From an uncultured Clostridium sp. (lineage in GTDB: Bacteria > Bacillota > Clostridia > TANB77 > CAG-508): DNA of 35,826 nucleotides. The notes under the pieces were generated by a model. It ran no database searches and was not told the origin of the DNA. It saw only the letters and a program-made list of their open reading frames with translations. Made by a program: the position numbers and the translations under genes. Below are positions 30,573 to 34,985 of this stretch, one piece after another (the stretch's first letter is position 1; each line of letters begins with the position of its first letter). The stretch lies in contig CAOJZE010000002.1 of assembly GCA_948466095.1 (NCBI GenBank), forward strand, positions 1 to 35,826. The letters run 5' to 3'.

Positions 30573-30601
30573 TTGACAAGAAAGAGAAAAGATAATATAA
30601 T
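30573..30601 (+). promoter_or_regulatory. Consensus sigma-A promoter TTGACA-17-TATAAT for tRNA-Lys
   Basis: TTGACA at 30573-30578, TATAAT at 30596-30601, about 25 nt upstream of the tRNA. Confidence 0.7.
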
Positions 30602-30625: not shown

Positions 30626-30701
30626 GGGCCATTAGCTCAGTTGGTAGAGCAGCAGACTCTTAATCTGACGGTCGGAGGTTCGAATCCTCTATGGCTCACC
30701 A
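30626..30701 (+). tRNA. tRNA-Lys (anticodon CTT), CCA encoded
   Basis: Cloverleaf: acceptor GGGCCAT/ATGGCTC, D arm GCTC/GAGC, anticodon loop CTCTTAA, variable CGGTC, T arm GGAGG-TTCGAAT-CCTCT, discriminator A, then CCA. Confidence 0.9.
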
Positions 30702-30702
30702 A

Positions 30703-30737
30703 AAAACCTATATAAAGTTAAATTTATATAGGTTTTT
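30703..30737. terminator. Bidirectional terminator (end of the tRNA, and end of the minus-strand RiPP-like operon)
   Basis: AAAACCTATATAAA-gtta-AATTTATATAGGTTTTT. Confidence 0.7.
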
Positions 30738-30741
30738 ATCA

Positions 30742-31878
30742 TTACTTTATTCCTAATTTTTGATAAATATCCTTAATATTCTGTATTTCTTGTTTATCAG
30801 CTTCTTGAATCAACTTTATAGTAGTAAATCTTGTTTTTAAAGAGTTTTCTTTTGAAAAAACATCTTTACCAATTCTAGTTATCCACATAGCAGGCAACAA
30901 AAGTGGAACCTTTTTTAAAACAGGGAACTTTTCTTGCATAATTTCCATATTAGGAAATAATAATTGAAGCAAAAACTTAAATTTTCCATCATTTTCTCCA
31001 ATCGAATAATTGACTCTATTCATAAGATTGCTACCCTTTAGGATAAAAGACTCTATCTCATCAAAATCATCCATTTTGTCTGTTCCAAACCATTTATAAG
31101 CTATATTTTTAATATTTTGGGCAAAATCTTGTATGCCAAAATCCCTAAATATTTTATCCAACAAATCATAATTTAAAGTATCCTTATAAGTTTCAAGATA
31201 TAAATACACATCTAAAATATCTTTGGCTTTAATTCCAGTAAATTTAAAATGTGTTAACAAATGAAGAATACAAAATACATAAGCATGATTGGTATCTAAT
31301 TGATAAATATTTTCATAATTCTGATATTTGACACATAAAGGCCAAATATCATTAAAATACTCATATCCTATCACATCTTTTTTTAAAATCAGTTTCCTAT
31401 GTAATTCTACAATAATAAAAGGGTCTTTGGTAAAAATCAAATGTTTTTCGTAGTTATAATATTTTTGATACCCCATACTTTTCATGATTTTTGATGCCTT
31501 TTTAAAATCGTCATGCTCAACTAAAATATCAATATCACACATTTGTCTCATATAATTTTGAGGATAAATATCTTTTATGACAGCCCCTTTTACGATTAAT
31601 GTTTTGATATGATTTTCCTCAAATGCATTTAATATTTTTTCGATTTCAATCGTTTGATTCGTATCTTTTACAATTTGAGCACTATAATCTTGTGCTATTT
31701 GATTTCGTATGGCTTCGGATTTACTATTTTTTTGAGCCCAGTTTTCTAAAAAATTACTAAGTTGATTCACTTTTGCTAATTGGTATAGCTTTTTTTCTTC
31801 TATATCATAATCTAGGGTACAATCTTTTTCTAATAAAAAACATTTTACAATTTCTAATAAACTTTTAGCTTCCTTCAT
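30742..31878 (-). CDS. Nucleotidyltransferase-family protein (NTP_transf_5 / PF14907-like)
   Basis: 378 aa. MCDIDILVEHDDF is an NTase acidic motif. It overlaps the stop of the ABC gene by 14 nt. Confidence 0.6.
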   Translation of the reverse strand: MKEAKSLLEIVKCFLLEKDCTLDYDIEEKKLYQLAKVNQLSNFLENWAQKNSKSEAIRNQIAQDYSAQIVKDTNQTIEIEKILNAFEENHIKTLIVKGAVIKDIYPQNYMRQMCDIDILVEHDDFKKASKIMKSMGYQKYYNYEKHLIFTKDPFIIVELHRKLILKKDVIGYEYFNDIWPLCVKYQNYENIYQLDTNHAYVFCILHLLTHFKFTGIKAKDILDVYLYLETYKDTLNYDLLDKIFRDFGIQDFAQNIKNIAYKWFGTDKMDDFDEIESFILKGSNLMNRVNYSIGENDGKFKFLLQLLFPNMEIMQEKFPVLKKVPLLLPAMWITRIGKDVFSKENSLKTRFTTIKLIQEADKQEIQNIKDIYQKLGIK

Positions 31879-33544
31879 TTGTTTTATCCTTTTCTCTTAT
31901 ATTTTTATCTTCTACGATATACTCTTTATCACAAAGTTTGGACACGCTGTTTCGATGGGTAACAATAATACAAGTGATATCTTTCATATTTTTTATATTT
32001 TGAATGACAGCTTCCTCCGTTTTGCTGTCTAAGCTAGAGGTAATCTCATCTAAAATTAGAATAGGAGCTTTACTAGCAATAGCTCTTGCAATCGCAATTC
32101 TTTGTAGTTGTCCTTCTGACAGTCCTCTACCTCTTTCCCCAATTTTTGTATCTAATCCATGCTCTAACTGGTCAATAAAAGATTTACAACAGCTTATCTC
32201 TAGTGCCTTATCTAAATCATCATTAGAAATATTTGGATTAACAAAAGTTATATTTTCTCGAATGCTACCACTTAAAATTAATTTCCCTTGTGGTACATAA
32301 GAAAACATATTTCTGGTATCTACATGAATGGGTTGTTTGTTACCATCTTTTAATTTAAAATAAATATGTCCAGTATCATTTTTGATAATTCCTAAAATTA
32401 ATTTTAATAAAGTACTTTTTCCAATTCCAGATTCTCCATAGATAACAATGTTTTCGCCTTTTGTTACTGTTAAATTAATTTGTTTGAAAATTTTCTTATT
32501 TTTATAAGTGAAATCAACATTTTCTACGACAATGCTATCTAAATTATCATATAATTGATTACTATCTATTTCATCTACGATAACGTCTTTTTCAATATTT
32601 TCTAGTTCTATGATTCTTTCTGCGGAACCTATCATATTAAATATATTTTGAACACATCGAGAAAGACTGATAATGGGAACTTGGATTTGTGTTACTAATT
32701 GAACAATTGAGGTAAGTCCCCCTACGGTAATGTTTTTCTTAAATAAATGGTAAGCACTCCATACTAACGCATAAATGTAGACGATTTGAAAAATTGTGTT
32801 TAGTCCGGTATGGGATGCAATGGATAAGCTTCTTTGTTTCATTTGAATATCATATTTTTTATGTTGTAATTCGTCACATTTTTTTAAAATAGGGTTTTCC
32901 GCCTGAAAGATTTTAATGACAAGAATATTTTCGAATACCTCCTTAAAAAATAAACGAACATTACCATTTGCTTCTTGTACTTTTTTATGAATGTTTTTTA
33001 AGTATGGTTTCAATAAATTAATGACAACAAATAAAAAAATACCACCTAGTAATAAAATTCCCACAAATTGCTGGCTAATCTGAAATAACAAGATAATGGC
33101 ACAAATAAGACTGGTAATCATAGATAATATACTAGGAATTAAGGAGACTAACGTATCGATGATAATGTCAACGTCTGAAACAATACGAGTCATTAAGTCT
33201 CCACTATGAAATTTGGTTATTTTTTCGTAATTTCGTTTTAAGATAGTTTCCAATATGTTTTGCTTGAAATTCATTTCTAATTTGGCTCTTGTAACAGCAT
33301 CAATAGAAGCTAGTATGGCTCTTAAGGTAATGGCTAAGATGGCTACCAAAATTAATTGCATGATATAGGCTTTTAATTTTGTACTAGTACCATTTGTTGC
33401 GGCATCAATTAGATTTTTAGAGATTAATATGGAATATATGCTTAAAAACGAGTATATGATATTGATTATGTTTAATAATATAAAGTTTAGAAGATTTGAT
33501 TTTGTTTTATTAAAAATCCATTTTATGGTTTTGGTATCTTTCAA
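31865..33544 (-). CDS. ABC exporter, fused permease and ATPase (no C39 peptidase domain)
   Basis: Six-TM N-terminal half. Walker A GESGIGKST, signature LSEGQLQR, Walker B ILILDE. Confidence 0.85.
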   Translation of the reverse strand: MKDTKTIKWIFNKTKSNLLNFILLNIINIIYSFLSIYSILISKNLIDAATNGTSTKLKAYIMQLILVAILAITLRAILASIDAVTRAKLEMNFKQNILETILKRNYEKITKFHSGDLMTRIVSDVDIIIDTLVSLIPSILSMITSLICAIILLFQISQQFVGILLLGGIFLFVVINLLKPYLKNIHKKVQEANGNVRLFFKEVFENILVIKIFQAENPILKKCDELQHKKYDIQMKQRSLSIASHTGLNTIFQIVYIYALVWSAYHLFKKNITVGGLTSIVQLVTQIQVPIISLSRCVQNIFNMIGSAERIIELENIEKDVIVDEIDSNQLYDNLDSIVVENVDFTYKNKKIFKQINLTVTKGENIVIYGESGIGKSTLLKLILGIIKNDTGHIYFKLKDGNKQPIHVDTRNMFSYVPQGKLILSGSIRENITFVNPNISNDDLDKALEISCCKSFIDQLEHGLDTKIGERGRGLSEGQLQRIAIARAIASKAPILILDEITSSLDSKTEEAVIQNIKNMKDITCIIVTHRNSVSKLCDKEYIVEDKNIREKDKTNEGS

Positions 33545-33579
33545 TTTTCTAATCCTTTCATTTACATTATCATTTGTTG

Positions 33580-33846
33580 CTATTCTTCAATCAGATTAAA
33601 AGATTTTAATTTATTGATAAATTTCTCTACATCTCCTTTAATCGTATTGATGTCAGTATTATATTTTTTTGATAACTTGTCTGTAATTTCTTCTATAGTT
33701 GTATTTTCTTGTAAGAGGTCCCATACAAATTTGGAAGAATCCGTTAATTGTATCATTCCTTGAAATTCGTTTACTAATTTACCTGTAGGAACAGCAACAA
33801 TGGTGTCTGCAATTTCTCTGGTTACAAATCCTTCTTTAATTTTCAT
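33580..33846 (-). CDS. PqqD-family protein (RiPP recognition element)
   Basis: 88 aa. FVTREIADTIVAVP...LTDSSKFVWDLLQENTTIEEITDKLSKKYN...DVEKFINKLKSFNLIE is the typical PqqD/RRE pattern. It overlaps the kinase gene's stop by 11 nt. Confidence 0.75.
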   Translation of the reverse strand: MKIKEGFVTREIADTIVAVPTGKLVNEFQGMIQLTDSSKFVWDLLQENTTIEEITDKLSKKYNTDINTIKGDVEKFINKLKSFNLIEE

Positions 33847-34555
33847 TGGTATCGACTCCTCTCATGATATTATAGGATAATTTTACTGCTTCTTCGCTTA
33901 TATTACAGCATAATTTATAAATAGGAATTTCTTTTAATATAATATCTATAATATCCAATAATTTCAACATTTGTTCTTTTGTTAGTCTTTTTACTGTTTG
34001 TTCAAAAAATAAAGGAACTGCTTCTTTTGGCTCTATTTTTTTGATAGAGTTTTTTGTTGCTTGCTCAATAAAACAAATTCCTTTTATTTTTGCTCTGGTG
34101 TTTTTACTGATATCATGTTTTCCTGAAAAAGGTGTGCCATAAGCATAAATACCATCTTCCATAATTCTAATAGCAGGTTTATCATCATTCAATATGTATG
34201 GATTTTTTTCACTTAGATATTTTAACCATAAGGATGTATGGGTAGATTTTCCAGTTCCGCAATTGGCAGAAAATAGATAGGCTTCATCATCGATTACAAC
34301 TGCTGATGCATGTAGAAGACATCCGCTGTAATTTAGTAAACCTTTATAAAAAGTAGTTCCCATGATCATGTATTCTGCAAGGTCATCTGATAGTAGTTCA
34401 TCAAATTTTTGCTCTTTCTGGATTGCTTCGTCTCTAACGGTAATTCTAAAGTCTCTTTCTGTATTTTCGTCATAGATATATTTTTGGGATCTTTTTTTTG
34501 TTGTATCAAATTTAGCATTGAATTCTACGATTAGGTCTGCTATTTTATATTTCAT
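33836..34555 (-). CDS. HPr-kinase-related P-loop kinase
   Basis: 239 aa. LHASAVVIDDEAYLFSANCGTGKSTHTSLW resembles the HprK C-terminal domain P-loop, as in lasso-peptide kinases and the HprK-related kinase A/B families. Confidence 0.65.
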   Translation of the reverse strand: MKYKIADLIVEFNAKFDTTKKRSQKYIYDENTERDFRITVRDEAIQKEQKFDELLSDDLAEYMIMGTTFYKGLLNYSGCLLHASAVVIDDEAYLFSANCGTGKSTHTSLWLKYLSEKNPYILNDDKPAIRIMEDGIYAYGTPFSGKHDISKNTRAKIKGICFIEQATKNSIKKIEPKEAVPLFFEQTVKRLTKEQMLKLLDIIDIILKEIPIYKLCCNISEEAVKLSYNIMRGVDTNEN

Positions 34556-34654
34556 ATTTACCTCTTTTGAATTTTTTATTTTATTTCTTATTTATTTTAC
34601 TATATAATGCTTCTGTTTGTCTATCTTTTCTTTGATTTTTACTATTTATTTTAT

Positions 34655-34685
34655 AGAAAAATGAGACAGAGCTTTACTCTATCTC
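34655..34685 (-). terminator. Leaky terminator/attenuator hairpin between the precursor ORF and the modification genes
   Basis: Minus strand: GAGATAGAG-taaag-CTCTGTCTC (one mismatch), followed by ATTTTTCT. Confidence 0.5.
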
Positions 34686-34708
34686 AAGTGATTTGTAAAA
34701 TTATCAAT

Positions 34709-34819
34709 TTAGTCTAAATCGCCACTTCCATAATTGTCTTCACGGCTTGGTGTTGATTTTGCATTAGATGCTATCATTGGTAGAATTACTGAATCTAAGC
34801 CATCATAATTTGTTCCCAT
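34709..34819 (-). CDS. Candidate RiPP precursor peptide, 36 aa: MGTNYDGLDSVILPMIASNAKSTPSREDNYGSGDLD
   Basis: Not in the ORF track because it is too short. The ATG is 8 nt after AGGAGG. It is the first gene behind a perfect promoter and lies directly upstream of the kinase/PqqD/ABC/NTase genes. Confidence 0.65.
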   Translation of the reverse strand: MGTNYDGLDSVILPMIASNAKSTPSREDNYGSGDLD

Positions 34820-34856
34820 TTATATTACCTCCTAATTTTACTAATCCTATATTTAT

Positions 34857-34885
34857 ATTATAACAAAAGCAACTCATTTTGTCAA
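34857..34885 (-). promoter_or_regulatory. Perfect sigma-A promoter TTGACA-17-TGtTATAAT driving the RiPP-like operon
   Basis: Minus strand: TTGACA (34885-34880), a 17-nt spacer ending in TGT, TATAAT (34862-34857). Confidence 0.7.
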
Positions 34886-34892
34886 CTGATTT

Positions 34893-34907
34893 ATGTAAAA
34901 TTTACAT
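34893..34907. promoter_or_regulatory. Palindromic operator-like site ATGTAAA-A-TTTACAT just upstream of the -35 box
   Basis: Perfect 7-bp arms, 7 bp from the -35 hexamer. Confidence 0.4.
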
Positions 34908-34961
34908 TTTTTCCTTTGGCTTCAAGCGTTTTGAGGTTATGTACAAGAAATGTAAAACCCA

Positions 34962-34985
34962 AAAAGCAGGAAAGACCTGCTTTTA
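34962..34985. terminator. Terminator hairpin after the upstream surface-protein gene
   Basis: AAAGCAGG-aaagac-CCTGCTTTT. Confidence 0.6.

Follow-up and report, generated by a model that had tools for sequence, protein, structure and literature searches.

Linear Polyphosphorylated Peptide (LPP) clusters, which belong to the peptides made by ribosomes and modified after translation (RiPPs), were found by starting from SipW-like signal peptidases encoded beside RiPP recognition elements (RREs) in Bacilli (Popov et al., Nat Commun 2026, PMC13381572). The cluster lppA-K-B-S-D-N encodes a precursor, an HprK-like kinase, an RRE, a signal peptidase I (SpI)-like peptidase, an MsbA-like exporter and a nucleoside triphosphate (NTP)-transferase; when it was expressed in B. 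subtilis, the product was a linear peptide with core Ser3 phosphorylated one to four times, which depended on LppK, and the leader was cut after Thr-1 by LppS with LppB required (PMC13381572). The leaders share YxxPxVLxHQxIxFETxxS (Px9Fx[T/A]), with YxxP regarded as the decisive element; the clusters are often located within capsular-polysaccharide loci and beside paeninodin-type lasso clusters, and the final product and its function remain unknown (PMC13381572). Lasso clusters of Firmicutes, too, typically include genes for a kinase, a PqqD protein and a PF14907 nucleotidyltransferase (NTase) as accessories (PMC7533575, PMC8498205); there, paeninodin kinases phosphorylate the linear precursor and, in pseudomycoidin, PsmN adds hexoses to the phosphate (PMC8498205). 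Here we describe an operon with this core and no SpI-like peptidase gene, on the minus strand of a 35,826-nt stretch of an uncultured Clostridium sp. (GCA_948466095.1, CAOJZE010000002.1), the whole of which we call the window.

On that strand, the order is promoter, ribosome-binding site (RBS), small open reading frame (ORF), hairpin, kinase, PqqD, ATP-binding cassette (ABC) exporter, NTase and terminator, and the locus is a genuine five-gene, self-contained RiPP-type transcription unit. A preliminary description of this DNA had placed the promoter, small ORF, hairpin, four packed genes and bidirectional terminator, and we find all of them at or within a few bases of where it put them. Read directly here are the gene content, the regulatory architecture, homology and fold, the absence of lasso cyclase, B2 protease and SpI genes, and conservation across a clade of related loci. 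By analogy with LPP, we put a probability of about two in three on the reading that this is an LPP-like RiPP operon without a dedicated leader peptidase, predicted to make a linear, phosphorylated and exported peptide. A product of that kind had already been proposed in the preliminary description, and it is still the best reading, right in kind given the LPP precedent; the accompanying statement that such a product class is not biochemically characterised is contradicted by Popov et al. (PMC13381572), who expressed and analysed LPP. Two things had escaped notice: that the peptidase that defines LPP clusters is missing, and that the operon is tightly linked to an upstream gene for a secreted protein with a distinctive C-terminal domain (CTD). 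What is known, then, is the LPP-type class as published; what is new is a peptidase-less clade with a different leader, its occurrence in gut Clostridia, and its link to the CTD protein.

The kinase gene (33836..34555, −) encodes 239 aa and is LppK-like, assigned by fold, motifs and a precomputed label. It has no match in the local Pfam copy, and its relatives carry the precomputed PF27840 (ScmC) label in the protein database. NCBIfam aligns it to ScmC (TIGR04249) at E = 3.5e-6 with 26.6 bits against a cut-off of 125, and to HprK_rel_A (TIGR04352) at E = 0.025 with 13.7 bits against a cut-off of 200. The AlphaFold2 model, built from 14 homologues, has a predicted local distance difference test (pLDDT) score of 82, and the top 18 PDB matches by Foldseek are all HprK/P (E from 2e-4, probability mostly 0.94-1.0), followed by phosphoenolpyruvate (PEP) carboxykinases of the same fold class. 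A PDB sequence search with the kinase profile gave nothing, the HprK/P link having come from the fold search alone. The motifs GTGKST (P-loop) and ILNDDKP are invariant across the 14 homologues, among 70 invariant columns, and parallel GVGKSE...LIADD of the genuine HprK found in neighbouring loci. On fold and motifs, we accept the 239-aa protein as an HprK-like P-loop kinase. The HprK-related kinase proposed earlier thus stands on those two counts.

The remaining enzyme genes have direct profile matches, which bear out the PqqD and PF14907 NTase assignments made earlier. The PqqD gene (33580..33846, −) encodes a discrete 88-aa RRE, LppB/B1-like, matching PF05402 at 6e-15. Next comes an LppD-like, MsbA-like half-size ABC exporter of 559 aa (31865..33544, −) with a transmembrane domain (PF00664, 3e-22) and a nucleotide-binding domain (PF00005, 2e-27), and last a 378-aa LppN/PsmN-like NTase-family protein (30742..31878, −) whose match to PF14907 (4.9e-45) spans 246 of the 249 profile positions. 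The kinase gene runs 11 nt into the PqqD gene, and the ABC gene 14 nt into that of the NTase. Searched against the PDB, the clade RRE profile has only discrete RREs of lasso and LPP systems at the top of its list: TbiB1 (1.9e-6), LppB (9x8z, 2.6e-5), PbaB1 (9x90, 2.6e-5) and TfuB1 (0.023). Since PbaB1 scores equal to LppB and TbiB1 better, we call the RRE lasso/LPP-type and do not assign it to the LppB branch. A protease hidden in the exporter or the NTase was considered and rejected. Family scans find no C39 peptidase domain in the exporter, whose alignment to peptidase-containing bacteriocin exporters begins past their peptidase domain; there is no extra domain, the C-terminal extension of the NTase has no Cys, and no further protease domain occurs anywhere in the operon.

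A broad HprK-related superfamily kinase paired with PqqD is also a feature of SynChlorMet (ScmC, TIGR04249/PF27840) and of HPr-rel-A (TIGR04352/04353), and the preliminary description had equated the operon's genes with the HPr-rel-A trio. That equation fails, with TIGR04352 at 13.7 bits against 200 and TIGR04353 not among the matches of the PqqD protein at E ≤ 0.1. SynChlorMet differs in that the operon here has no radical-SAM/SPASM gene and the ScmC and ScmD scores fall under cut-off, the PqqD protein reaching 14.8 bits against 100 for ScmD (TIGR04248). Membership of the kinase in either family is rejected, its scores being far under the equivalog cut-offs.

A scan for kinase homologues, taking one genome per species, gave 80 loci (cited by L numbers where needed), nearly all in metagenome-assembled genomes of Clostridia from gut, rumen or caecum, and a small number in Acholeplasma and Thomasclavelia; the kinases were clustered by identity and their neighbours mapped with profile hidden Markov models (HMMs). 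The window falls in a clade of 22 loci with 49-92% kinase identity and the fixed order small ORF, kinase, PqqD, ABC, NTase. The clade includes L001-L018 (57-92%) as well as L043 and L050, whose 49% comes from truncated kinase ORFs, the best tblastn segments being 65-66% identical. Other kinase groups have, in the LPP gene letters, the layouts K-B-S, K-B-S-D, K-D-B-S, N-K-B-S-D, K-S or K-B. Their S is a protein of about 153 aa with the motifs GxSMxP, HR and GDN, a signal peptidase I of archaeal type by TIGR02228 (1.3e-5) that matches SipW weakly. An HMM made from 32 SpI-like neighbours detects S in 38 other loci. Translating the whole window in six frames gave it no match, nor did L001-L018, L043 and L050, a negative that leaves room for a distal copy in the genome. 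Kinase homologues 42-50% identical to that of the window lie in K-B-S-D or N-K-B-S-D clusters (L066, L047, L076) with the archaeal-type SpI and precursors bearing a YxxPx[LF] leader, and these form a bridge from the window clade to the canonical LPP architecture.

The absence of the lasso cyclase and of the B2 protease from the unit, claimed earlier, is upheld and extended to the relatives. Pfam scans covered 35 window ORFs, namely those of at least 90 aa outside longer ORFs (minus 6275-6559 and 19436-19762) plus the short ORFs of the operon, and none of them is an Asn-synthase-like cyclase or a transglutaminase-like (B2) protease, nor did another peptidase turn up in the window. Neither cyclase nor B2 was found within ±10 kb in the 22 related loci, and no cyclase- or B2-type family recurs within ±8 kb of the kinase across the 80. 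Several families that do recur beside the kinase, c13 (DHFR), c5 (acyl-ACP thioesterase) and c6/c11/c12 (YchF, metallopeptidase and genuine HprK), were rejected as housekeeping genes kept by subgroup synteny and not part of the system. The acyl-ACP thioesterase (PF01643/PF20791) lies directly 3′ of the NTase on the same strand in 11 loci among L007-L018, L043 and L050, not in the window; it may be there by synteny and no more, or it may give that sub-branch a further tailoring reaction, for example lipidation. One kinase subgroup (L019-L022, L026, L032, L045, L046, L055, L065, L069) has just the kinase and the SpI-like peptidase, with no PqqD, exporter or obvious small ORF, and this two-gene form sits among the genes of the YchF GTPase, the zinc metallopeptidase and the genuine HprK.

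The candidate precursor is a 36-aa ORF (34709..34819, −; MGTNYDGLDSVILPMIASNAKSTPSREDNYGSGDLD) with the RBS AGGAGG at 34833-34828 (−), and it is also called by independent gene callers. Every clade locus with sequence at this place has an RBS-preceded ORF of 36-60 codons directly upstream of the kinase. The N-terminus is loosely conserved as (Y)D-x-L followed by hydrophobic-x-P-M/F, with a Ser or Thr 1-3 residues later in most, and the C-terminal half is hypervariable, acidic and Gly/Ser-rich with in-frame indels. Because a strong RBS and a conserved N-terminus go together with a hypervariable C-terminus, the small ORF behaves as a RiPP precursor. The C-terminal residue is Asp in the window peptide and F, I, P, V, L, Y, M, T or G elsewhere in the clade. 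Read directly, the peptide has no lasso features, with neither a [Y/W]xxPx[L/V/I] leader with Thr(-2) nor a core of G/A/S/C1 and D/E7-9; the one junction of Thr(-2) with a small residue, T23-P24|S25, is followed by 12 residues, of which those at positions 7-9 are neither Asp nor Glu. In the S-containing groups, the matching small ORFs do bear a lasso-like leader, for example MKKYVSPELNVELF and MKQYKAPDFEVALFEVEDVI. Px9Fx[T/A], scanned for in all 80 loci, matches only spurious ORFs and none that is plausible. The tripeptide R-G-D or R-E-D turns up in the variable core, as SGRGD (L005, L083, L082), PRGDG (L006) and SREDN (window). RGD is the classic integrin-binding motif; its presence in precursors of gut bacteria may be coincidence.

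The precursor is preceded by a sigma-70-type promoter, TTGACA-17-(TG)TATAAT (34857..34885, −), with 12/12 matches and a TG extension, kept in relatives, and followed by an intrinsic terminator or attenuator hairpin with a T-run (about 34657..34686, −) that has an 11-bp stem (34686-34662 together with the T-run) and stands between the precursor and enzyme genes. The hairpin folds with a free energy of −14.9 kcal/mol (z = −4.7), which 0/200 shuffles equalled. A hairpin with T-run separates the small ORF from the kinase in 20/21 clade members with at least 4 distinct stem sequences, and finding different stems in the same position indicates selection acting on the structure itself. A strong precursor promoter combined with a terminator is the usual RiPP layout for producing precursor in plenty and the enzymes sparingly. 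The kinase gene is preceded by a weaker second promoter-like site, TAGACA-18-TAAAAT (34594..34623, −; 10/12 match), and the block ATAGACAAA...TATATAGTAAAATAA is kept in 5 loci. In four relatives whose intergenic DNA has otherwise diverged with large indels, the promoter, the RBS, the N-terminal half of the small ORF, the hairpin stem and the second promoter-like site are all conserved, so these are operon signals beyond chance. Rfam finds no riboswitch or leader RNA in the precursor-kinase spacer, the sole match being a tRNA.

Directly upstream of the −35 hexamer is the box TTTTACATAAAT (34889..34900, −), invariant in the window, L001, L002, L004 and L013 and also present in L089, possibly an UP element or an operator/regulator half-site. 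In the window, the box lies inside a near-palindrome ATGTAAA-T-TTTACAT (34889-34910, −), of which the relatives keep the promoter-proximal half only. At the other end, the operon stops at an AT-rich bidirectional terminator (30703..30737), a 15-bp palindrome between A- and T-runs (free energy −14, z = −4.1) that a consensus terminator scan missed because the palindrome has only 2 G-C pairs. It is common to the operon and to the convergent tRNA-Lys(CTT) gene (30626-30701, +), which has its own 12/12 promoter TTGACA-17-TATAAT at 30573-30601 (+).

Set against LPP of Paenibacillus alginolyticus and other Bacillota, the locus agrees in having the precursor first, then kinase, discrete RRE, MsbA-like exporter and PF14907 protein in the same order with no macrolactam cyclase, and in precursors with a conserved N-terminus and a variable C-terminus. 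Kinase, RRE, exporter and NTase are thus all as in LPP, whereas LppS and the leader motif are lacking, YxxPxVLxHQxIxFETxxS or Px9Fx[T/A] being absent from the clade leader. The clade differs further in its hosts, which are uncultured gut Clostridia and not Bacilli, in having the gene of a secreted CTD protein as neighbour in place of a capsular-polysaccharide locus, and in its shorter precursors (36-60 aa). With the paeninodin and pseudomycoidin lasso clusters (padeAKCB1B2D; psmKN), it shares the HprK-like kinase, the B1/PqqD RRE, the PF14907 NTase and the ABC exporter, but the window unit has no cyclase C and no B2, and the peptide does not end in Ser and has neither a W/YxxP leader nor a lasso-compatible core.

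Several points weigh against the LPP-like reading. The SipW-like LppS that the clade lacks is the very seed of the LPP family. The 36-aa peptide matches neither Px9Fx[T/A] nor the [Y/W]xxP shared by lasso and LPP leaders, and since it has no YxxP-type motif, its binding by the RRE remains a prediction. The kinase falls below every curated family cut-off tried, and its Foldseek TM-scores are only 0.23-0.46. Likeness to LppK, LppS and LppN is judged from their published description and not from their sequences, and a product has been observed for 0 clade members. From the LPP side, LppN had no detectable activity and its deletion changed nothing, and an unphosphorylated precursor was poorly cleaved (PMC13381572).

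The gene upstream of the precursor encodes, on the same strand, a secreted multi-domain protein of which the window holds the 3′ part (35048..35826, −), the frame being open to the window end and the ORF at 35048-35536 being its end. The extreme C-terminus is the CTD, a beta-sandwich domain of about 135 aa (about 35051-35470, −; CTD HMM E = 6e-43) that has no Pfam match. Between this gene and the precursor promoter is a terminator-like bidirectional hairpin (34962..34984) with a 9-bp stem on both strands. Of the clade loci, 16 have sequence upstream, and in all 16 the CTD HMM places the domain in the same-strand gene next upstream of the precursor; it also finds the domain near the kinase in five S-containing loci, L023, L024, L027, L053 (twice) and L066. 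Carrier proteins are 250-1270 aa long, with signal peptides, Big_3 or InlB B-repeats and Pro/Thr/Ser linkers; Pfam and NCBIfam scans of the CTD-carrier representatives tested find no wall-anchor family, whether sortase-signal, SLH or other. The linker in the window, (PSSSSSPA)n, is encoded by a perfect 24-nt tandem repeat (35676-35826, 6.3 copies, 100% identity) that runs off the window, its perfect identity suggesting recent expansion or a contingency locus.

Looking from the domain back to the operon gives the same picture. A phmmer search with the window CTD against 1.84 billion representatives returns 18 hits only, all C-terminal; a word-index homologue search is insensitive to this fast-evolving domain, giving 2 hits with the CTD alignment and 0 with the window CTD protein. 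We looked up 9 CTD homologues, and 6 have an LPP-like precursor gene or its promoter next to them: 2 belong to loci that are complete (CTD - small ORF - kinase - PqqD - ABC - NTase), 3 show the conserved promoter or precursor before the contig ends, and 1 precedes a 51-aa ORF with a YxxPxM leader. Among these precursor-linked cases, the cassette is present wherever the contig extends far enough. One other contig is too short to judge, and the last 2, the weakest hits tested, are in phage tail modules. The association of the CTD with the operon is tight in both directions. Weak relatives (E 1e-5 to 9e-4) at L086 6001-7362, L087 2700-4061 and L091 6001-6681 are C-terminal domains in phage tail/lysis modules beside Gp10_C, XhlA and a 1242-aa protein, which hints that the CTD fold is used for cell-surface recognition. 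The AlphaFold2 model of the CTD, from an alignment of the window and database proteins, has pLDDT 89.9 and is an all-beta sandwich, with fold matches to ApaG, TRAP-beta and Ig/FnIII-like domains (E from 1e-4) that are unspecific.

This two-way linkage makes the operon and the upstream gene candidates for a single module, in which CTD protein, precursor and K-B-D-N enzymes would form one cell-surface system and the CTD would recognise the exported phospho(glyco)peptide as its cognate ligand, anchor or partner; alternatively, the kinase and NTase could act on the secreted protein itself or on a wall polymer. We regard this as unlikely. In its favour, the CTD is rare and always at an extreme C-terminus, it is encoded upstream of all 16 clade precursors and near the kinase of the five SpI-containing loci, 6 of 9 reverse look-ups lead to a precursor, the carriers have a signal peptide and no wall-anchor family in the representatives scanned, and the phage relatives lie in tail modules whose C-terminal domains usually bind cell-surface receptors. 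However, the Ig/ApaG-like sandwich is a generic fold that matches nothing of specific function, the window has a terminator and a separate promoter between the two genes, neighbours may stay together within one bacterial lineage by inherited synteny, the known partners of RREs are short leader peptides and not folded proteins, and binding of the peptide by the CTD stays predicted. Were it true, LPP-type RiPPs would serve gut Clostridia in displaying surface proteins or assembling a matrix, and phage tail proteins would use their CTD relatives to reach the same epitope on the surface.

A split lasso pathway of paeninodin type, with this operon as its accessory half and the cyclase and B2 encoded elsewhere in the genome, seems very improbable. 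The kinase, PqqD and PF14907 trio is indeed usual in Firmicutes lasso clusters (PMC7533575, PMC8498205), it is common for a single genome to carry both LPP and lasso clusters (PMC13381572), and our cyclase search covered the window and the locus flanks, not the whole genome; yet no Asn-synthase- or transglutaminase-like gene is among the scanned window ORFs or the recurrent families of the 80 loci, the peptide has neither a YxxP leader nor a suitable core, and the five-gene unit is bounded by promoter and terminators and conserved so in 22 loci. Just as little can be said for a decaying remnant of a canonical LPP cluster, one that has lost its leader peptidase and makes no mature product. The SpI-like peptidase is absent, a 97%-identical relative has its ABC gene called shorter (442 aa), and in L014-L016 an opposite-strand ORF interrupts that gene. 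Against decay, all five window ORFs are intact, the S-less layout extends over 22 loci at 49-92% kinase identity with promoter, RBS and terminator conserved, and 70 invariant kinase columns in 14 sequences imply long purifying selection without the peptidase.

Returning to the LPP-like reading, chemistry, site, order of steps and export can be modelled on LPP, paeninodin and pseudomycoidin. The strong, constitutive-type promoter would give high transcription of the 36-aa precursor gene; the conserved terminator would halt most transcripts, and read-through, possibly with the weaker internal promoter, would supply the enzyme genes at lower expression. The stand-alone PqqD/RRE would bind the N-terminal segment of the peptide, (Y)D-x-L...hydrophobic-x-P-M/F, and hand the peptide to the HprK-like kinase, which would phosphorylate, possibly repeatedly, a Ser or Thr in the S/T-rich stretch after it, our best guess being Ser18 (IAS). 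The PF14907 enzyme may then decorate the phosphate with a hexose or a nucleotide, as inferred for PsmN in pseudomycoidin, and an MsbA-like ABC homodimer would export the linear product, with its leader either kept or removed by an unlinked protease.

The clade bears on two open questions about LPP, how the leader is handled and what the peptides are for. Across 49-92% kinase identity, the kinase-RRE-exporter-NTase core persists with another leader and no peptidase, which implies that leader removal is dispensable or outsourced and that RRE specificity has moved off the YxxP motif. The two-way CTD association is a testable lead to a cell-surface function and parallels the capsule-locus association in Bacilli. 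The uncultured Clostridia that carry the operon are abundant in the gut, so its product may play a part in colonisation or in dealings with phages.

The rest of the window is of a different character. The left 22 kb (1-22200, −) are a conjugative-element-like block with a TraG/type IV secretion system (T4SS) coupling protein, a 754-aa SpaA-repeat protein (6621-8885), a thioester-domain (TED) protein (8914-9771), a sortase (10658-11239), a 1048-aa adhesin with 8 MucBP repeats (11309-14455), a pilin-like gene of the TrbC/T4SS kind (20786-21139) and, at 21463-22164, an HTH_36 protein. The coupling protein is split between ORFs that overlap (2771-3346 and 3315-3926), which may reflect a frameshift or a pseudogene. 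The border between this block and the chromosomal genes is a stretch of raised G+C at 23000-25000 (0.35-0.38 versus about 0.27 elsewhere), which covers a 524-aa SH3_3-domain protein (23289-24863). Beyond the NTase, L081, whose kinase is 97% identical, has an element with a phage-type integrase and D5-primase in place of the VanW/SDR genes of the window, and this swap suggests that the tRNA-Lys(CTT) gene is an integration hot spot.

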